A stretch of 64,000 nucleotides of DNA from an uncultured Planctomycetia bacterium (GTDB lineage: Bacteria; Omnitrophota; Gorgyraeia; 1-14-0-20-64-10), in the NCBI GenBank assembly GCA_964373805.1, contig CAYJWF010000004.1:1891-65890 (forward strand). The letters are read 5' to 3'. This document shows, piece by piece, positions 1,000 through 64,000 of the stretch. A program made the translations under genes and the position numbers. Below the pieces are notes generated by a model, which ran no database searches, was not told the DNA's origin, and was given only the letters and a program-made list of their open reading frames with translations. How positions within the stretch are numbered: position 1 is the stretch's first letter; every line of letters begins with the position of its first letter.

Positions 1000-2431
1000 G
1001 TTTGCGCACCACGGTTCCGCCGGCGGTATCTTCGAGGAGATAGCCGGACTCTTTCAATTGCATTCGAATTTGATCGGCCTTCTTAAAATCGCCGCGCCGA
1101 CGGGCCTCATCCCGTTCCCGGATGAGTTCTCGAATGGCAACAGGAACTTCCTGTCCGAAGGAAAGGCCCAATACACCGGCCAACTCCTGAAGAACCGTTC
1201 GGACGGCTCGGAGCTTTTTCATCGCCTGAGAACCCCGCTCCTCCAGCCAAGGAAGCGCCTGCGCCACCAAGCCGTACAGGGCCGACAACGCCTCAGGGGT
1301 GTTCAAATCGTCGTCCATCGCCTGAACGAATTTTTCCCGCGCCGCGCGAGCGGCGGGAGGTTCCTCCTCTTCCCCCGGCCCGATCCGCTGATCCACCTGC
1401 GTCAAAAATCCGAAGAGTCGTTCATAGGCGTGGGCCGTCTCTTTAAGTCGCTCCCAGGTAAAATCGATCGGGGATCGGTAGTGGGCGGTCAAGAAGAAGA
1501 GCCTTAACACCTCGGCCGGGTGCCGCTTCAAGGTTTCCTCTATCGTAACAATGTTCCCCACCGATTTCGACATCTTCTGACCGTTCACCGTGAGCAGGCC
1601 GTTGTGCAACCAGACCCTCGCAAACGGTTTGCCGGCGCCTTGCGCTTGGGCGATTTCGTTCTCGTGGTGGGGAAAGATAAGGTCCCCTCCTCCACCGTGG
1701 ATATCGAAGGAGTCCCCGAGAAGAGCGGTCGACATGGTGGAACACTCGATGTGCCAGCCGGGACGCCCCGGCCCCCAAGGACTCGCCCAACTGGGCTCCT
1801 CCGGCTTGGCCCTTTTCCAAAGGGCGAAATCGAGCAGATCTTTTTTCGCTTCCACCGCCTCACTCCGAGCTCCGGCCAACATCTGGTCGGGATTCTGATG
1901 GGACAACTTTCCATACGAAGGGAATTTTCGAACCGAAAAGTAAACGCCGTCGCTCCCCACGTACGCCATCCCTCGGCGAAGAAGCTCCTCCATGAAGGCA
2001 ATCATCTTCGGGAGGTACTCGGTCGCCTTCGGCTCGTGGGTGGGGGATAAAAGGCCCAAGCGAGAGAAGTCGGCCTGGAACCGCTCGGTGAAATGCTCCG
2101 CGACCAGTTGAACCTTCATTTTCAAATCTAAAGGGGTCAGACCCCTTTTGCCCACCTCTTGAAGCTCGCGCAGGTCAGGGGCCTGACCCCAGTGGCGGGC
2201 CCGATCGATGATCTTGTCGTCCAGATCGGTGATGTTGCGCGCGTAGGTGACCTGGTAGCCTTTGAAGATCAGGTACCGCAAAAGAACGTCAAAGACTACC
2301 GCTCCCCGCGCGTGGCCGATGTGGCAGTCATCGTAGACGGTGACCCCACAGACGTAGAGGGTCACTTGAGGTGGATGTAACGGGAGGAATTCCTCTTTGC
2401 GACCAGTCAGCGTATTCACGAGTCGCATCAT
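992..2431 (-). CDS. cysS: cysteinyl-tRNA synthetase
   Basis: HIGH and KMSKS motifs (CHIGHARG, KMSKSVGN); 479 aa. Confidence 0.95.
   Translation of the reverse strand: MMRLVNTLTGRKEEFLPLHPPQVTLYVCGVTVYDDCHIGHARGAVVFDVLLRYLIFKGYQVTYARNITDLDDKIIDRARHWGQAPDLRELQEVGKRGLTPLDLKMKVQLVAEHFTERFQADFSRLGLLSPTHEPKATEYLPKMIAFMEELLRRGMAYVGSDGVYFSVRKFPSYGKLSHQNPDQMLAGARSEAVEAKKDLLDFALWKRAKPEEPSWASPWGPGRPGWHIECSTMSTALLGDSFDIHGGGGDLIFPHHENEIAQAQGAGKPFARVWLHNGLLTVNGQKMSKSVGNIVTIEETLKRHPAEVLRLFFLTAHYRSPIDFTWERLKETAHAYERLFGFLTQVDQRIGPGEEEEPPAARAAREKFVQAMDDDLNTPEALSALYGLVAQALPWLEERGSQAMKKLRAVRTVLQELAGVLGLSFGQEVPVAIRELIRERDEARRRGDFKKADQIRMQLKESGYLLEDTAGGTVVRKRV
2130..2152. repeat. P1 palindrome GGGGTCAGACCCC (A/T-flanked) inside cysS
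   Basis: AAAGGGGTCAGACCCCTTTTGCC; in frame; encodes GKRGLTPL. Confidence 0.85.
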
Positions 2432-2461
2432 TTATAACCAACCGAACGGTTTTTGTTTCAT

Positions 2462-3157
2462 TCACTGTTTCTGGCGGTGCTCTTTGAGCTGCCCCTCGAT
2501 GGCGTCGATCTCGTGCTGGAGTTTCTCTAAGGCCTGGGCTAAGGGATCGGGGAGACTGGTGTGATCCAAGTTGATCCCTGGAAAACGCCGCCCCTCCTGT
2601 CGGACGATGCGGCCCGGGACCCCCACCACCACCGCGTTGGCCGGAACGTCCCGGATCACCACGGCGTTGGCCCCAATCTGGACATCATCAGAAATGGTGA
2701 TGTTGCCAAGCACCTTGGCCCCGGTTCCGATCACCACGTTGTTGCCGATGGTGGGGTGCCGCTTCCCCCGCTCTTTGCCGGTCCCACCGAGGGTTACCCC
2801 CTGGTAGATCGTGACGTTGTCCCTCAAGACCGCGGTCTCACCGACGACCACCCCCATGCCGTGGTCGATGAACAGGCCCTGGCCGATCTGGGCCCCCGGA
2901 TGAATCTCGATTCCGGTCAACCCGCGGCTGGTCTGGGAGATGAGCCGCGCCAAGAACTTTAAGCCCAACCGATGCAAGGCATGAGCGACCCGATGGGAAC
3001 CGATCGCCAACACACTGGGATAAAGGAAAAGGACCTCCCACTCCGATCGGGCCGCCGGGTCTCGCTCCAGGGCGGCTCGAATCTCCCTTTTTAACGAGAC
3101 TCGCATGAAAAGCAACCACCCGACCGCAAAAAATAAAATAACCGCTAGGATCGGCAT
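2462..3157 (-). CDS. cysE: serine O-acetyltransferase
   Basis: Left-handed beta-helix hexapeptide repeats, IHPGAQIG...; 231 aa. Confidence 0.85.
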   Translation of the reverse strand: MPILAVILFFAVGWLLFMRVSLKREIRAALERDPAARSEWEVLFLYPSVLAIGSHRVAHALHRLGLKFLARLISQTSRGLTGIEIHPGAQIGQGLFIDHGMGVVVGETAVLRDNVTIYQGVTLGGTGKERGKRHPTIGNNVVIGTGAKVLGNITISDDVQIGANAVVIRDVPANAVVVGVPGRIVRQEGRRFPGINLDHTSLPDPLAQALEKLQHEIDAIEGQLKEHRQKQ

Positions 3158-4329
3158 CCTTGAAGCAGGACGACCGCGTAGGCGGCCATCGCCTCTTTCG
3201 CACCAATGGGACCTAAACCTTCCATCGTCCGGACCTTCACGTTCACTTGGGATTCCTTAACCTTAAGAAGCCTCGCCACGGAGCTGCGAATCGCCTCTCG
3301 ATGGGGACCTAACCGTGGCTCCTCGGTGATGACCATGAGATCGGCGTTGGAAATTTCAAGTTTCCTGGCTCGAATCAGCCGAAGCGCCTTGGCGATGAAT
3401 CGCTGGCTCGGGGCCCCTTTCCATTTGGAATCGGTATCGGGAAAGTGGCTCCCTAAGTCCCCGGCCCCTGCCGCCCCCAGCATCGCGTCGCAGAGGGCGT
3501 GGAGGAGCACGTCCGCATCGGAGTGACCCAGGAGTCCCTTCTTCGCTGGAATCTTCCTTCCCCCTAAGACGAGCGGCCGGCCCGCGATCAACCGATGAAT
3601 ATCAAACCCAATGCCTACTCGCATATCAAAAGGGGTCTGACCCCTTTTGCCTTTCATCAAGGTTTCCGCCATCAAGAGATCATCCTGAGTGGTCACCTTC
3701 AAATTCCGGGGAGAACCTTCCACGATCCGTACCTTGACCCCCATCGCCTCCACCAAGGCTGCGTCATCCGTTGCGGTAACCCGCCTGATTCTTGCCCGAT
3801 GGTGAGCCGATTCCAACAGATCCCGACGAAACACTTGAGGGGTCTGGATCGCCCAGAGGTGGTTTCGATCCAAGGTTTTGGCCACCCATCCGGCCCTGAC
3901 CTGCTTGATCGTCGGAACCACTGGGATAGCCGCCACGGCCGCTTGCGTCCGTTGGGCGGTCCGGATCGTCTCCATAAGGAGCTCCGATGGGACGAGGGGA
4001 CGAGCCCCATCGTGAACCACCACCCACTCTGCCGATGGAGGAAGCGCCTGCAATCCTCGGAAGACTGAGGCGGTCCGAGAAGCGCCTCCCGGGATGATCT
4101 GAATCACCTTCCGATAGCGGTACTTCTGGACCATCCGTTGGACCGCCGCGACATCGTCCCGATGACTGACCACAACCATCCCATCGATCGGACGAGCCTG
4201 CTCCAAGGCGCTTAAGGTCCAAGACAGCATCGGCCGTCCAGCCAACCGGACGAACGGCTTTCGGACCTTCTTCTTAAAACGTCTGCCCTCTCCAGCAGCT
4301 GGGACAATAGCGACAACCCTAGGTGCCAG
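3145..4329 (-). CDS. ispDF: bifunctional 2-C-methyl-D-erythritol 4-phosphate cytidylyltransferase / 2-C-methyl-D-erythritol 2,4-cyclodiphosphate synthase (IspDF)
   Basis: Tracked ORF starts at a TTG (4245). The same frame upstream encodes the conserved IspD N-terminus VVAIVPAAGEGRRF, right up to an in-frame TAG at 4351-4353. The C-terminal half is IspF (GHSDADVLLHAL...). No ATG/GTG/TTG lies between the TAG and the motif; the start is placed at CTG 4327-4329 by inference. Confidence 0.8.
   Translation of the reverse strand: MAPRVVAIVPAAGEGRRFKKKVRKPFVRLAGRPMLSWTLSALEQARPIDGMVVVSHRDDVAAVQRMVQKYRYRKVIQIIPGGASRTASVFRGLQALPPSAEWVVVHDGARPLVPSELLMETIRTAQRTQAAVAAIPVVPTIKQVRAGWVAKTLDRNHLWAIQTPQVFRRDLLESAHHRARIRRVTATDDAALVEAMGVKVRIVEGSPRNLKVTTQDDLLMAETLMKGKRGQTPFDMRVGIGFDIHRLIAGRPLVLGGRKIPAKKGLLGHSDADVLLHALCDAMLGAAGAGDLGSHFPDTDSKWKGAPSQRFIAKALRLIRARKLEISNADLMVITEEPRLGPHREAIRSSVARLLKVKESQVNVKVRTMEGLGPIGAKEAMAAYAVVLLQGCRS
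3628..3650. repeat. P1 palindrome inside ispDF (IspD-IspF linker)
   Basis: AAAAGGGGTCTGACCCCTTTTGCC; encodes GKRGQTPF. Confidence 0.85.
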
Positions 4330-4350
4330 GTCGACTTTAGACCCCTTTTG

Positions 4351-5379
4351 CTATCTCGCCGCCTTCCAGGCCGCTCGAGAGTTCTCCACCTCCGGCTTGG
4401 CAAAGATCATCCGCCCCGCAGCGGTCTGAAGGACGCTCGTCACCAACACCCGAACCGTCTGCCCGATCAAGGAACGACCCTGTTCGACCACCACCATGGT
4501 CCCGTCATCGAGGTAGGCCACCCCCTGATTGTACTCCTTGCCCTCTTTGATCACCCGGGCCTCCAACAGCTCCCCGGGCAACACCACCGGCTTTAAGGCG
4601 TTGGACAACTCGTTGATGTTAAGCACCGGGACCCCTTGCAGCTCGGACACCTTGTTCAAATTAAAATCGTTGGTCAAGATCTTGGCCCCCATCAGCTTCG
4701 CCAATCGGACGAGCTTCGCGTCCACCTCTTTGGTGTCCGGGAATTCCTCCTCGTGGATCTTCACCTCCACGGAAGGAATCTTCTGCATCCGGGCCAAGAC
4801 GTCCAACCCCCGACGACCTCGGTTGCGCTTGATGGGGTCTTGGCTGTCGGCGATCTGCTGGAGCTCCTTCAAGACAAAACGGGGGATCACCAACCGGCCC
4901 TCGATGAACTGGGTATCACAGATGTCCGCGATCCGCCCATCGATGATGACGCTCGTGTCAAGGATGACGACCTCTTCCCGTTGATCCTGGCGGGTAAACT
5001 TCACATAGGGGATGATGACGTTGAACTCATCCCGACCCCGAACGGCGATGGCCATCCCAAAGTAACAGAAGATCACGACGATCGCCGCCCGAACGGGATT
5101 GCCCAACTCCGGCCCGGTGGGAACCATATCCAAGGTCGTGATGATGAGCCTCGCCATCAACAGCCCAAAGGCCAGCCCAAAGGCGGCGGCCGAGAGGCCG
5201 CGGCTCGAAACCTTCTTCAAGGCCAATTCCAAACCGATCAAGATCAAAGCCACACCGGCTCCCCCCAGGGCTCCGGTCAAGCCCGCCTCGGATCCCCCCA
5301 AGCCCATCAAGGGTCCGATCTGATAACCGACCATGGCCCCTAGGGCCACAAAGAAGAATCGAATGAACCACAGCGTCAT
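4351..5379 (-). CDS. PIN/TRAM domain membrane protein (YacL-like)
   Basis: N-terminal TM helices, PIN domain ([12 protein letters not shown]), C-terminal TRAM-like domain; yacL is the usual neighbour of ispDF. Confidence 0.75.
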
Positions 5380-5400
5380 GGAAAATTCCTCCTGATAACA

Positions 5401-6138
5401 CTATTTCTTCTTGCTCTCCTTGGGACGATAAAGAAGCTTCCAGGGATGGGCCTTGATGTCGGAAGCGATCCCTTTCAGATCCTCGTAGAGATCGTCCTGG
5501 GTCAACAACCGACCGATGGTCCCCTCCCCCTGTCGAACCTTCGCTAAAATGATGTTGCCCTGGTCGAGCATCTGGGACAGCTTCTCGGTAGCCTCCGCCG
5601 AATGGGCGATGGTGTTCTTCAAATCCTCCTGGGTCGCGGGATTGCCGACCACCGCGTGGATGGAGGCGATGGTCTGCTCCAACTGTTGAACCACCCGATA
5701 CCCGGCTTCGACGAGTTGTTCGCTCGGCACCGAATCCTTTCCCTGAAGGACCTCCCCCGAGGTGAGCACCCGGCTGCCCGGGGTTCCGGGGATCACCTCC
5801 AGGTATTTCTCTCCAATGAGTCCCAAGGTATTGATGTAGGCCACCGCATCCTCTTCCACGCGAGCCTGTTTTAAAACCTGTATCCCCAGCTCCGCCTGCA
5901 TCCGCTGCGTGGCCTCGTCTCGGAAGACCCGCACCGAACGGACCTCCCCGACGTTCACCCCGGCCAAACGGACCGGGGCCCCTGCTTCAACCCCGTTGGC
6001 AAAGTTGAACCGCACCCGCAAGGTGTACTGAGGCTTGGCCGTGTAAAAATCGCTGATCGAGAAGACTACGACGGAAAACAGGATGAAGGCAATGAACACA
6101 AACAACCCTATCTTGATCTCTCGGGTATTCCCAGCCAT
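5401..6138 (-). CDS. mlaD: MCE-family lipid transport substrate-binding protein MlaD
   Basis: N-terminal TM anchor plus MCE domain; sits next to the mlaF/mlaE homologs. Confidence 0.75.
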   Translation of the reverse strand: MAGNTREIKIGLFVFIAFILFSVVVFSISDFYTAKPQYTLRVRFNFANGVEAGAPVRLAGVNVGEVRSVRVFRDEATQRMQAELGIQVLKQARVEEDAVAYINTLGLIGEKYLEVIPGTPGSRVLTSGEVLQGKDSVPSEQLVEAGYRVVQQLEQTIASIHAVVGNPATQEDLKNTIAHSAEATEKLSQMLDQGNIILAKVRQGEGTIGRLLTQDDLYEDLKGIASDIKAHPWKLLYRPKESKKK

Positions 6139-18017: not shown

Positions 18018-18036
18018 ACGGGGTCAGACCCCATCA
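18018..18036. repeat. P1 palindrome, intergenic (ilvE-mcsA)
   Basis: CAACGGGGTCAGACCCCATC. Confidence 0.8.
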
Positions 18037-28989: not shown

Positions 28990-30064
28990 CTATCTCTTCT
29001 GGGCTTTCCACCGAAGATACGCGTCTAAAAATAGGTCCAGCTCCTCGCCGGCTAAGACCCCTTGCGTCTTGCCGGTCTCCACTCCGGTCCGGTGGTCCTT
29101 GACCATCTGGTACGGATGAAGCACGTACGATCGGATCTGTGAGCCCCATTCGATCTTTTGCTTCTCGGCGTACTGCTTGGCCAGGGCCTCTTCCCGAATC
29201 TTTCGCTCCAGCTCGCACAGCCGAGCGCGAAGGACCTTCATCGCGAAGGCCTTGTTCTTGTGCTGGGACCGTTCGTTTTGGCACTGGACCACGATGCCGG
29301 TCGGCAGGTGGGTGATCCGCACGGCGGAATCGGTGGTGTTCACCCCCTGTCCGCCGGGTCCGCTGGCTCGGTAGACATCGATCCGAAGATCCTTCTCCGG
29401 CAGATCGATCGGAAGGTCGTCCGCCACCTCCGGGATCACATCCACCGCGGCGAAAGAGGTGTGCCGCCTCTTGTTGGCATCGAACGGCGAGATCCGAACC
29501 AGGCGATGGACCCCGTTTTCTCCTTGAAGAAGACCAAAGGCGTAATCTCCCCGGAGGAGGAGCGTCACCGATTTGATCCCCGCCTCTTCCCCCACCAGAT
29601 AATCCAGCACCTCGGTCTCGAACCCTTTGGTCTGGGCCCATCGGCTGTACATCCGAAACAGCATCGAGACCCAGTCGCACGACTCCGTTCCGCCCGCGCC
29701 GGCGGTAATGGAGAGGATCCCGTTGTTGGCGTCGGACTCTCCTCGGAACAGGGTGCGTCGCTCGAGAAGGGCAACCTCTTTTCCTAAACTTGTGAGGGAT
29801 CGCTTGAGATCGGCTTGTGCCGCGGTGTCGTGCTCATCGATGAGGGGGGCCAATTCCTGAAGGGTCTCGGCCTCCCCCCAAGCTCTTTTCCAGTGCTCGA
29901 GGATGCCTTTGAATTTTTTAAGTTCCTGGATGGTGACCCCGGCCTTGGTTTGGGTATCCCAAAATCCGGGAGTCGCGATGGCCTGTTCGAGAACCTTTAT
30001 CCTGGACTCAACCTGGTCCAGGTCAAAGATACCTCCGCAGGTTTTGCAGGGTCTCTCGAAGGGA
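28990..30064 (-). CDS. prfB: peptide chain release factor 2, with programmed +1 frameshift
   Basis: Short 0-frame [26 protein letters not shown] ends at CTT TGA C preceded by the SD-like GGAGG (minus-strand sense, near 29982-29988). The +1 frame continues [10 protein letters not shown]... into the tracked ORF, which has the GGQ motif (GPGGQGVN). Confidence 0.9.
29982..29988 (-). promoter_or_regulatory. prfB: prfB programmed +1 ribosomal frameshift site (CUU UGA C) with upstream SD-like GGAGG
   Basis: Minus-strand sense GCGGAGGUAUCUUUGACCUGG; classic autoregulatory RF2 frameshift. Confidence 0.85.
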
Positions 30065-30168
30065 GGTCAGTTGATTCGCTAAGGCGGTATCCATTACGAA
30101 CGATGGCGCTGCTGTTGGTGGCGGTACCAGTAGGTCCAGGCGACTCCACATAAACCGATCACCAAAAG
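30064..30168 (-). CDS. tiny single-TM membrane protein B1 (34 aa), translationally coupled to prfB
   Basis: ATG preceded by AAGGAG at -8; encodes MNSIVGMYVVLLVIGLCGVAWTYWYRHQQQRHRS; its TAA overlaps the prfB ATG (TAATG); a paralog (B2) lies at 32076-32195. Confidence 0.5.
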
Positions 30169-47303: not shown

Positions 47304-49868
47304 TTAAACGACGAGGCTGATGAGGCGGTTGGGGACGACAATCACCTTCTTCGGCGGCTTGCCATCCAACCAGCGTTGAACGTTGGGATCCTGAAGAACC
47401 TTGGCCTTCAGCTCCTCCTCTTGAGAGCCAACCGGGACCGTCAGATGGGAGCGGACCTTGCCGTTGACCTGCACGACCAGGGTCACCTGCGACTCCTGGA
47501 GGAGGGCAGGATCGTAGGTTGGCCAAGGAGCCTTGGCCAACATCTCCTGGTGGCCCAGCCGTTCCCACAGCTCCTCGGCCAGGTGAGGGGCAAGGGGGTT
47601 TAAAAGCCGGGCCAGCGTCTCGATGGCTTCCTTTCTCTGCCCATCGGAAAGCTGAGGAAAAATCCTCTCCAGGGAGTTCCGATACTCCATCAGGGCGCTG
47701 ATCGCCGTGTTGAACTTGAAGCTCTCCAGATCCTCGGTGACCCGCTTGATCGTCGCGTGGGTGAGGCGCTTAAGCTCACCATCCGATGGAAAACCTGATG
47801 GGGTCAGACCCCTTGGGGTCTGACCCCTTTGACCCTCCACCAAGTTCCAGACCCGATTCATGAACCGCCAGATGCCGTCGATGGCGCTGTCGTTCCATTC
47901 CAGTTGATCCTCCGGGGGAGCGGCGAAAAGGATGAAGAGTCTTAAGGCATCGGCCCCGTACTTGGCGATCACTCCCTCCGGATCGACCACGTTCCCCTTG
48001 GATTTGGACATGACCTCGCCATCCTTCAAAACCATTCCCTGAGTCAAGAGGCGAGAAAACGGCTCTGAGATTGTAAGGAGCCCTAGATCCCGCAGGAACT
48101 TGGTGAAGAAACGGGAATACAGGAGATGCAGGATGGCGTGCTCGATCCCACCGATGTACTGGTCCACCGGCATCCAGAAGGCGGCCTCTTGGGAATCAAA
48201 CGCAGTGGCGGCCGCTTTCGGGGCCGCGTGCGGCTTCGGGGAACAGAACCGCAGGAAGTACCACGAGGAGTCGAAGAAGGTGGCTATGGTGTCGGTCTCT
48301 CGACGGGCCGGTTGCCGACATTTGGGACAGGGCGTCTCCACAAAGGCCTTGACCTTGGCCAACGGTGAGCCCCCGGCTCCTGTGATTGAAACCTTGGGCG
48401 GCAAGGTGACCGGCAACTGGTTCTCAGGAACCGGCACGGTCCCGCAACGGGAGCAGTAAACGATCGGGATGGGAGTCCCCCAGTACCGCTGTCGAGAGAT
48501 GAGCCAATCCCGAAGCCGCCAATGGGTCGTCCGCTGGCCAAATCCATTCTCCTCCATCCAGGCGGCGATCTTTCCCTTACCCTCTTGACTAGACAGACCA
48601 TTAAACTGGGCGGAGTTGACCTGGATCCCTTCCCCTTCGAAGGCCTCTTTCCATCGGCTGGGATCAGGGACAGTCCCCGAAGCTTGCCCTGAGCTTGTCG
48701 AAGTGGGAGACGGTCCCTGAGGAGGCTGGATCACGACTCGGATCGGAAGTCGATGTTCCTTGGCGAACAGAAAATCCCGCTGATCGTGCGCCGGGACCGC
48801 CATGATCGCCCCGGTGCCGTACTCCATGAGGACATAATCGGCCACCCAGATCGGGATTGCCTCTGCGTTCACCGGGTTGATGGCCATCCGCCCGGTGAAA
48901 ATCCCCTCCTTCTTTCTATCGGCGGCGGTCCGGACCTCTCTGGGCTGGCGCTTCACCCGATCGATGAAGGCCCGAACCTGGGGCCCTTTAGGGTTACCTT
49001 GAAGAAGCTCCTCGACGACCGGATGTTCTGGCGCCAAAACGACGTAGGTGGCGCCAAAGATCGTGTCCGGCCGGGTGGTAAAGACCGGAAGTTTTGTCGA
49101 GCTGTTCTGAATGGAAAATTGGATCCGAACCCCTTGGCTCTTCCCGATCCAGTTCCGTTGCATGGTTAAGACACGCTCCGGCCAGCGGCCCAAGGTATCC
49201 AGGTCCTGCAGGAGTTCCTCCGCATACGCGGTGATTTTCAAGAACCACTGCTCCAACTCCTTCGGCTCCACGGCGGTTCCACAGCGCCAGCAGCCGTCTT
49301 GGACCACCTCCTCGTTGGCCAGGGTCGTCTGACAACTGGGACACCAGTTGACCGTGGCTCCGGCCCGATAGGCGAGGCCCTTCTCGAACATCTTGAGGAA
49401 GATCCACTGGTTCCATCGGTAATAGTCCGGCTGGCAGGTCACCACCTCTCGATTCCAGTCGTAGGAGAATCCCAAACGTTTCAAGCCGGTTCGCACCTCT
49501 CCGATGCACCGGAAGGTCCACTCGGCCGGATCCACCTTCTGTTTGATCGCCGCGTTCTCCGCCGGCTGGCCAAAGGCATCGAATCCCGTGGGATGAAGGA
49601 CCCGGTACCCCTGGGCCATCCGAAACCGGGCCAGGACGTCGCCGATCGTGTAGTTCCGGACATGCCCCATGTGGAGGCGCCCCGAGGGATAGGGGAACAT
49701 TTCCAGGAGGTAATATTTTCCTCTTCCGGTGTCTGGCACCGACCCGACCTTTGGCTCCTTCGGGGTGCCTGACACCGGTGTGGCCTGGAAGATCTTCGCC
49801 TCTTCCCACCGCCGCTGCCACTTTTCTTCGATTTCTTGAAATGGGTAAGCCATCGTCGGAAAAGCCAT
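47304..49868 (-). CDS. leuS: leucyl-tRNA synthetase
   Basis: HIGH (HMGHVRN) and KMSKS motifs; 854 aa; carries two in-frame repeat insertions. Confidence 0.95.
47798..47830. repeat. two tandem P1 palindromes inside leuS
   Basis: GATGGGGTCAGACCCCTTGGGGTCTGACCCCTTT; encodes [12 protein letters not shown]. Confidence 0.85.
48655..48700. repeat. R3-related segment inside leuS coding sequence
   Basis: ...GCTTGCCCTGAGCTTGTCGAAGTGGGAG...; in frame; encodes part of the [14 protein letters not shown] linker in LeuS. Confidence 0.5.
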
Positions 49869-49937: not shown

Positions 49938-50008
49938 TGGGGCTGTAGCGTAAAGGGAGCGCATCTCCATGGCATGGAGGAGGTGAGGGTTCGATTCCCT
50001 CCAGCTCC
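49938..50008 (+). tRNA. tRNA-Ala (anticodon GGC)
   Basis: Cloverleaf folded by hand: acceptor GGGGCTG/CAGCTCC with G3:U70, anticodon loop ATGGCAT, T-arm GAGGG-TTCGATT-CCCTC; coordinates +/-1. Confidence 0.7.
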
Positions 50009-50029
50009 AACAATTTCCATTCAAATACT

Positions 50030-50113
50030 TGGGGATGTGCTGGAATTGGCAGACAGGGGAGTCTCAAAAACTCCTGGGCGCAAGCCCGTGGGGGTTCAAG
50101 TCCCTCCATCCCC
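50030..50113 (+). tRNA. tRNA-Leu (anticodon CAA), type II with long variable arm
   Basis: Acceptor GGGGATG/CATCCCC, D-arm CTG-GAATTGGCAGA-CAG, anticodon stem GGAGT/ACTCC with loop CTCAAAA, variable arm TGGGCGCAAGCCCGT, T-loop TTCAAGT; coordinates +/-1. Confidence 0.7.
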
Positions 50114-50151
50114 ACTCAAATTTCTCCATCCCTCATTTGGGAGGGCTCTTG

Positions 50152-58674: not shown

Positions 58675-58692
58675 GGGGTCTGACCCCATCAG
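58675..58692. repeat. P1 palindrome, intergenic (after nrdJ)
   Basis: CTCGGGGTCTGACCCCATCAG. Confidence 0.8.
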
Positions 58693-63587: not shown

Positions 63588-63799
63588 TTTTTCGGTGATG
63601 ACCGGGGCTAGCTGTCTGGATTGTTCATTTCGCCATAGAAATGTCCTGTTAGTAACAGGTTACCTGCTCCCGCAGGAAAATTCAAGGCCCCACAAGCCGC
63701 AAGGAAATTTTCCTCACTTTTACCTCCCCATAGGCCATACTTGATGTGAAGACCTCGAAAAAGGCACGGCCACATTCAAGGCCACGCAAAGCCACGGAT

Positions 63800-63845
63800 C
63801 TTTTGGTGCCAGGCACCTTTTAAAGATGGGTGCCTGGCACCAAAA
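63800..63845. repeat. P2 twin hairpins GGTGCCAGGCACC + GGTGCCTGGCACC upstream of tpsA
   Basis: TTTTGGTGCCAGGCACCTTTTAAAGATGGGTGCCTGGCACCAAAAAAG. Confidence 0.8.
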
Positions 63846-64000
63846 AAGAGAGCCGGGCTGCCGAGGTGCAGAAGATTTTGCGTCACGGCAACCCGGCGTT
63901 TTTATTTTCCTGGTTTCCTTCGGCCTTTCGTAAAAGGTGAGAACGGATTAGGATGGAAGGGATAACCTTAAGATGACGATGCAGCGAGTTAATCCTTTGC

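Follow-up and report, generated by a model that had tools for sequence, protein, structure and literature searches.

An apparently intact ispDF gene with no canonical start codon downstream of yacL in an uncultured Omnitrophota bacterium, and a CTG codon as its likeliest start

A small number of bacterial genes are translated from rare non-canonical start codons (CUG, AUU, AUC, AUA), the AUU starts of infC and pcnB in Escherichia coli being familiar examples. Here we describe a candidate for this group in a 64,000-nucleotide (nt) stretch of DNA, hereafter the window, from an uncultured bacterium (GenBank assembly GCA_964373805.1, contig CAYJWF010000004.1, positions 1,891 to 65,890 of the forward strand; submitted as Planctomycetia, GTDB lineage Omnitrophota; Gorgyraeia), in which a fused ispDF gene of the normally essential methylerythritol phosphate (MEP) pathway follows a yacL-like gene and has no ATG, GTG or TTG upstream of the residues that its IspD domain needs. 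As in the known cases, the place of the AUG or GUG of homologues is taken by a near-cognate codon, a Shine-Dalgarno (SD)-like motif lies upstream of it, and a low efficiency of initiation would be expected. The AUU start of infC is known to serve autoregulation; nothing points to a similar role in ispDF, and the use of CTG here is putative.

The surroundings of the gene are otherwise familiar. The order yacL-ispDF-cysE-cysS is that known from Bacillus subtilis (yacL-ispD-ispF-(gltX)-cysE-cysS), and compared with the IspDF of Campylobacter jejuni (PDB 1W55) the protein itself shows nothing unusual, the start signal alone being different. Short palindromes located between genes or in frame within them are known as REP/BIME elements and as Rickettsia palindromic elements, the latter lying in frame within genes. 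The window likewise carries a hairpin-forming repeat both between genes and in frame in conserved genes (cysS, leuS and the linker of ispDF), differing in that its core measures only 13-23 nt and has no match in Rfam.

Two further bodies of work provide direct comparisons. Switches from a canonical start to CUG were counted at 2 of 61,358 AUG, 1 of 5,080 GUG and 1 of 2,468 UUG starts (Belinky, Rogozin and Koonin 2017, PMC5622118), and such a switch is therefore a rare but known event (~10^-5 to 10^-4 per ancestral start). The present case would likewise involve a rare one-base change, either from a canonical codon to CUG or from GUG to GUC, although those counts rest on a close phylogeny and the ancestral codon here is deduced from distant relatives. 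Translationally coupled gene pairs (Huber et al., PMC6728339, PMC10666635) share with the yacL/ispDF junction co-directional genes, the lack of a promoter between them and, in relatives, overlap or close spacing; the gap in the window is however 21 nt to the CTG or 15 nt to an upstream GTC, distances at which termination-reinitiation coupling is weak or lost (PMC10666635), and independent SD-driven initiation is at least as likely.

All genes of the locus lie on the minus strand, with mlaD, mlaF and mlaE further upstream of the yacL-like gene. The gene identities given in a preliminary description of this DNA (a yacL-like gene and a fused ispDF) were borne out by NCBIfam and Pfam matches. The YacL-like protein matched the Pfam families PIN (7.8e-10) and TRAM (2.2e-4). 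The IspD domain of ispDF, in the stop-to-stop translation, scored 250.4 bits with TIGR00453 (cut-off 181.3, profile positions 2-219) and 237.7 bits with Pfam PF01128 (positions 1-220 of 221), and the IspF domain scored 192.2 bits with TIGR00151 (cut-off 116.45) and 209.2 bits with Pfam YgbB. The cut-off of the bifunctional IspDF equivalog NF006899 was not reached (392.4 vs 417 bits); the fusion architecture is plain from the alignment to 1W55 (residues 15-395, E = 7e-55) and from the domain models that do pass. No second ispD or ispF was found within the 64-kb window, and the exact-sequence clusters of IspDF and YacL have one member each.

The yacL-like gene ends with GCG AGA TAG (AR*), and the minus strand continues after this stop (4353-4351) as CAA AAG GGG TCT AAA GTC GAC CTG GCA CCT AGG GTT GTC GCT ATT GTC CCA GCT GCT GGA GAG GGC AGA CGT TTT, which translates as QKGSKVDLAPRVVAIVPAAGEGRRF. 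The stop is in frame with ispDF, and the first ATG, GTG or TTG past it in this frame is TTG 4245, followed by ATG 4230. The absence of any such codon between the yacL stop and the IspD motif, which the preliminary description had claimed, was thus confirmed by reading the frame; its remark that the motif follows 'directly' after the TAG is right as to frame and slightly loose as to distance, the motif starting 11 codons past the stop, and its remaining junction coordinates are correct. Three Logan contigs, from separate assemblies of the runs ERR4904391, ERR4904392 and ERR3478686, agree with the window without a single mismatch across 3.8-4.6 kb that include the junction, so that a base-calling or assembly error there is very unlikely; as the runs may come from one population, their agreement does not address the age of the allele. 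A frameshift from an overlapping 63-residue open reading frame (4212-4403) was rejected on inspection, as there is neither a slippery site nor a reason to suppose that this frame is translated.

In the public protein set the gene is present only as a 361-residue product (P0001) that begins at ATG 4230, 33 codons past the CTG. Its Pfam IspD match (198.7 bits) begins at profile position 30 of 221 and its TIGR00453 match at position 29 of 219. When the N-terminal stretch upstream of it (~29 residues) is included, the Pfam IspD score rises by 39 bits (from 198.7 to 237.7) and that of TIGR00453 by 41.6 bits, and these extra bits, along with the invariant residues that the stretch contains, identify it as genuine coding IspD sequence. 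In a 14-sequence alignment (A2), residues A11, A12, G13, G15, R17 and K24, counted from the proposed CTG start, occupy invariant columns, and every other invariant column of IspD and IspF is also kept, so that ispDF is without signs of decay. The loop PAAGEGRRF...K sits in frame upstream of every canonical start codon. In E. coli IspD structures, the glycine-rich loop PAAGxGxR and a downstream lysine bind cytidine triphosphate (CTP). Because it would lack both this loop and the lysine, a protein begun at TTG 4245 or ATG 4230 should be catalytically dead as IspD. The public 361-residue call is almost certainly a truncated, gene-finder artefact, since gene finders consider only ATG, GTG and TTG.

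The position of the start was narrowed down by comparison with 115 homologues, in which the number of residues preceding the P of PAAG takes the main values 6-8 and 11 (the latter commonest, 38/115). A length of 2 was called in two homologues (P0076 and P0007) and lengths of 3 or 4 in none. These two, together with P0022, which was called past the loop, were considered as parallel start-less cases and rejected once checked on their contigs: all three have canonical starts upstream that gene callers had overlooked, a GTG overlapping the yacL stop as GTGA in two of them and a TTG in the third. As the short homologue N-termini proved to be miscalls, the ispDF start must, by this comparison, fall in the 11 codons between the TAG and GTT 4317. 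Among these codons, all upstream of the first beta-strand, CTG 4329-4327 is the sole accepted rare bacterial start. It leaves 9 residues before the P of PAAG, within the main homologue range of 6-11, and aligns with the start methionine of two homologues (P0012 and P0104) and, in three Thermodesulfovibrionia/Deferribacteres loci (L001, L019 and L020), with the ATG. Of the four explanations offered in the preliminary description, a rare CTG start, with its homologue-consistent position and no canonical start upstream of the needed residues, is thus the best supported. That description had named CTG and ATT as the only candidates; ATT fits poorly, leaving too short an N-terminus compared with homologues, and the GTC, whose SD spacing is ideal, had been overlooked. 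CUG is occasionally annotated as a start in bacterial genomes; in E. coli its initiation reaches 1-2% of that of AUG in one reporter and ranges over 0.02-3% between constructs (10.1101/063800).

We consider it on balance probable that this is an intact, functional ispDF that has lost its canonical start, with translation most likely beginning at CTG 4329-4327. The loss would most simply have come about by point substitution. The near-cognate CTG would be read as formylmethionine, giving a 394-residue IspD/IspF enzyme that begins MAPRVVAIVPAAGEGRRF, with a predicted N-terminal peptide of (M)APRVVAIVPAAGEGR. The AAGGGG motif located just past the yacL stop, 12 nt from the CTG and 6 nt from the GTC, may recruit or retain the ribosome, and some initiation at GTC 4335 is possible. 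The gene belongs to the conserved yacL-ispD(F) operon, and a contribution may come from ribosomes that terminate on yacL 21 nt upstream. The output of ispDF would probably be low. We infer the codon used, the role of the SD-like motif and the level of expression from position and context.

AAGGGG is calculated to pair with the assumed anti-SD sequence CACCUCCUUA at -7.5 to -7.8 kcal/mol, more strongly than the presumed starts of the window, whose median is -4.8. A scan found no promoter-like site between yacL and ispDF, which makes their co-transcription likely, and across positions 1900-5600 nothing relevant was found among Rfam families, promoters and terminators. No RNA structure at the junction was more stable than shuffled controls (z -0.7 to +0.5). 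Since the start lies 21 nt (15 nt for GTC) from the stop, neither overlapping it nor within ~10 nt, we regard coupling with yacL as a possible contributor rather than the mechanism.

Several observations weigh against initiation at the CTG. The anti-SD sequence had to be assumed, as no 16S rRNA gene lies in the window; an SD-like match just as good turns up at 17% of random positions; and the 12-nt spacing between AAGGGG and CTG exceeds the 6-10 nt of clear GGAGG sites in the window. In a weak local hairpin the guanines of the SD-like motif pair with the C and U of the CUG, although its stability does not exceed that of shuffled sequence, and 21 nt is a stop-to-start distance at which measured coupling is nearly lost (PMC10666635). 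Support from the family is also missing: the comparison of the junction with related genomes, suggested in the preliminary description, revealed no ortholog with a CTG start, all of the ~30 homologous loci inspected having a canonical one, and the nearest relatives (52% identity for IspDF, 69% for YacL) are too distant to judge conservation of the CTG. Finally, the window covers 64 kb of the genome, and a second ispD or a mevalonate pathway is possible elsewhere. The features of the locus are collected in Table 1.

Table 1. Positions of the genes, candidate start codons and repeat copies discussed in the text, numbered along the window
Feature	Position	Strand	Basis or remark
CTG, proposed present start; 394-residue product M-A-P-R-V-V-A-I-V-P-A-A-G	4327-4329	minus	position relative to homologues
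GTC, 11 residues ahead of the P of PAAG and possibly the earlier GTG start	4333-4335	minus	homologue offsets
ATT, alternative start of the preliminary description, judged unlikely	4306-4308	minus	leaves 2 residues before P of PAAG
PAAGEGRRF codons, IspD glycine-rich nucleotide-binding loop	4276-4302	minus	alignment A2; aligns to solved IspD and IspDF structures
First canonical in-frame start, TTG, downstream of the nucleotide-binding loop	4243-4245	minus	open reading frame list
ATG of public gene call P0001 (361 residues, truncated product)	4228-4230	minus	public protein set
SD-like AAGGGG inside palindrome arm	4342-4347	minus	spacing of 6 nt to GTC 4335 and 12 nt to CTG 4329
ispDF as proposed: IspD domain, linker, IspF domain; stop TAG 3147-3145	3145-4329	minus	profile matches
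yacL-like membrane PIN/TRAM gene, 342 residues; stop TAG 4353-4351	4351-5379	minus	open reading frame and Pfam
cysE (longest open reading frame)	2462-3157	minus	open reading frame list
cysS	992-2431	minus	open reading frame list
Partial P1 palindrome copy GCAAAAGGGGTCT, from last base of TAG, then AAAGTC, then GACC	4339-4351	minus	repeat comparison
Full P1 palindrome CAAAAGGGGTCTGACCCCTTTTG, IspD/IspF linker, read KRGQTPF	3627-3649		repeat search
Full P1 palindrome in cysS, read KRGLTPL	2128-2150		repeat search
Copies of the core GGGGTCWGACCCC	2133-2145, 3632-3644, 18020-18032, 47800-47812, 47815-47827, 58675-58687		

As to how the start was lost, the yacL gene stands directly upstream of ispD(F) in many phyla, the junctions being overlaps of -4 or -1 nt (GTGA, TAATG) or gaps of 2-16 nt. 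The best match to the window protein in genome contigs is 53% identical and the next best in a protein set of 5.8 billion clusters 52%. The closest relative (L180; YacL 69% and IspDF 52% identical) has the order mlaD-yacL-ispDF as in the window and an in-frame GTG at offset 11. The same offset is occupied by GTG in two further loci, where it overlaps the yacL stop (L176 and L177), and by GTG GAC at the start of three Armatimonadota loci (L002-L004), all aligned with GTC 4335-4333. Because the GTC aligns with this GTG of relatives, a called start in several, a single GTG-to-GTC change with the ribosome-binding site kept would be the simplest history, simpler than loss mediated by a repeat element; this ancestral state is deduced from relatives 47-52% identical. 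On that history the CTG, two codons further downstream, would be the best start left. Alternatively, the CTG itself may derive from ATG, GTG or TTG, and nearly the same protein would result either way. Long upstream in-frame extensions in Dehalococcoidia, considered as possible YacL-IspD fusions, were rejected as arginine-rich off-frame translations.

A different origin, offered in the preliminary description, rather unlikely in our estimation and compatible with present use of the CTG, is that insertion or conversion of the palindromic repeat P1 at the junction removed the original start. The 13-mer GCAAAAGGGGTCT at the junction recurs unchanged within the full palindrome of cysS; if up to 1 mismatch is allowed, it has 4 matches in the window against 0.21 expected, three of them inside the two full copies. 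Removing AAAGTC restores 17 nt of palindrome, and 16 bases of the junction copy match the copy in the ispD/ispF linker at 94% (pair I1). Six copies of the 13-nt core GGGGTCWGACCCC are present in the window, where 0.01 would be expected, and the closest relative has no palindrome at the junction or in the ispDF linker, so that these copies are lineage-specific gains. The truncated copy that the preliminary description saw at the predicted start is a real partial copy, though not a clean half: it reads GGGGTCT + AAAGTC + GACC, its core being interrupted by AAAGTC and its right arm cut short. With only the left arm present the boundaries of an insertion cannot be defined, and the spacer from stop to GTC (15 nt) compared with that from stop to GTG in the closest relative (13 nt) requires no net insertion. 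A single base change accounts for the missing start equally well, and because the arm includes AAGGGG its resemblance to the repeat may partly reflect selection for a ribosome-binding site.

Initiation at GTC 4335-4333 itself, as a former GTG with a mutated third base, would give a product beginning MDLAPRVVAIV. The codon has AAGGGG at 6 nt, it sits at the commonest homologue N-terminal length and, as described above, it occupies the GTG position of relatives. However, GUC is not a near-cognate of AUG, and to our knowledge it is absent from the accepted starts of translation table 11. Non-near-cognate codons tested individually in E. coli gave 0.01-0.2% of AUG, ~10x below CUG (10.1101/063800), and we consider use of GTC as the main start unlikely.

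Equally unlikely, in our view, is a real loss of function, in which the cell would make exactly the truncated protein that gene callers predict, from TTG 4245 or ATG 4230, with a dead IspD and a working IspF, IspD activity being supplied elsewhere or unneeded. The lack of a canonical start and the canonical starts kept by all relatives give the case the look of a lesion, and 64 kb leaves room for a second gene. Against this, the upstream 28 codons are open, in frame and conserved at invariant positions, all invariant IspD columns are kept, the same allele is present in three runs and no second ispD lies in the window; nor do TTG 4245 and ATG 4230 have a better SD-like site (-3.8 and -5.5 kcal/mol).

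Initiation at ATT 4308-4306 appears highly improbable. ATT is an accepted rare bacterial start with a weak AGGG 8 nt upstream, but its product (MVPAAG) would lose most of the first beta-strand (RVVA), the conservation of whose codons would go unexplained; it would retain 2 residues where homologues have at least 5-6, the two equally short calls being miscalls with upstream GTG, and the SD-like duplex is only -3.9 kcal/mol. Still less probable is readthrough of the yacL TAG, for which the preliminary description had allowed. The two genes share a frame, and 11 sense codons separate the stop from conserved IspD sequence, so that a YacL-IspDF fusion could in principle be made; but TAG, which ends 13 of 60 open reading frames in the window, serves here as a normal stop, relatives have yacL and ispD(F) as separate genes that lie in different frames wherever stop and start overlap (GTGA, TAATG), no significant RNA structure follows the stop, and a fusion would tether IspDF to a membrane protein. 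Sequencing or assembly error, also raised there, is effectively excluded by the three identical independent assemblies (0 mismatches over ~4 kb), even though one base change at 4333 would give GTG and one at 4329 ATG, GTG or TTG.

Non-canonical starts are no general habit of this genome. Nine other open reading frames in the window with long start-less extensions were scanned, and a domain upstream of the first canonical start was found only in prfB, a case explained by programmed +1 frameshifting. The prfB gene (release factor 2; 28990-30094, minus strand) begins at ATG 30094-30092 and carries the frameshift site GGAGG TAT CTT TGA C at ~30036-30021; its first ~25 codons are missed by simple open reading frame lists and by calls restricted to ATG, GTG and TTG.

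The palindromic repeat family is a more unusual feature of the window than the start codon, and the preliminary description had missed that the core forms a family dispersed over the window. The full palindrome CAAAAGGGGTCWGACCCCTTTTG occurs at 3627-3649 and 2128-2150 in the same reading frame, the two sites sharing ~30 nt including flanks, and the linker copy forms a hairpin of -21.2 kcal/mol over a 61-nt stretch (z = -2.9). Two of the six core copies are intergenic (18020 and 58675); the other four, namely those of cysS and the ispDF linker and a tandem pair within leuS, lie in frame in essential genes, where they always read RG(Q/L)TP. A 21-nt form of the palindrome is common in metagenomes, with at least 120 stretches whose varied flanks often extend the palindrome, and about one third of the sites among the matches listed lie in long open frames. 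The literature searched held no relevant paper on the core or its encoded peptides.

At the junction, the SD-like motif of ispDF is supplied by the repeat arm (5'-AUAGCAAAAGGGGUCU), of whose 16 bases 15 are complementary to the 3' arm of the full palindrome that lies 700 nt downstream on the same mRNA. It is conceivable, if quite improbable, that the repeat actively reshapes genes of this lineage, that one of its arms became the ispDF ribosome-binding site and that long-range RNA pairing between repeats of the operon could control ispDF expression from its weak non-canonical start.

Some further observations concern the same genes. The linker palindrome stops 3 nt short of the ATG with which the IspF domain begins (FD-M-RVGIGFD; 3600-3650, minus strand), a sequence that resembles the N-terminus of a stand-alone IspF, and separate internal initiation of IspF is conceivable from this arrangement. 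Compared with the solved Coxiella and E. coli structures, the cysteinyl-tRNA synthetase encoded by cysS carries ~22 extra residues APDLRELQEVGKRGLTPLDLKMK (2100-2190, minus strand), a stretch that contains P1 and a second, related palindrome GGTCAGGCCCCTGACC. The longest cysE frame, from ATG 3157, overlaps the end of ispDF (3106-3157, minus strand), and the Logan call for cysE (214 residues) uses an ATG 17 codons downstream, at ~3106, its product beginning MRVSLKREI.

Elsewhere in the window, a match to the c-di-GMP-I riboswitch (63753-63865, plus strand) scores just above the gathering score (36.6 vs 35 bits). Genes for tRNA-Ala(GGC) and tRNA-Leu(CAA) adjoin at 49938-50115 on the plus strand, and a 288-residue open reading frame from 50029 overlaps the tRNA-Leu gene, its 5' end being probably spurious.

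The closest relative (ENA ERZ4903137, contig k141_4220171), the only one found with 69% identity in YacL and the order mlaD-yacL-ispDF, is the best available anchor for finding further genomes of this lineage. For annotation, the ispDF call should be extended to 4329. Metabolic reconstructions that rely on a 361-residue product without the CTP-binding loop could take IspD to be defective or an odd variant, and gene finders limited to ATG, GTG and TTG silently truncate such genes. A start-less ispDF opens no new question by itself; it is a clean example from nature of a normally essential gene of the MEP pathway that has apparently persisted after losing its canonical start and, if use of the CTG is confirmed, it would add to the documented cases of near-cognate initiation beyond model organisms.

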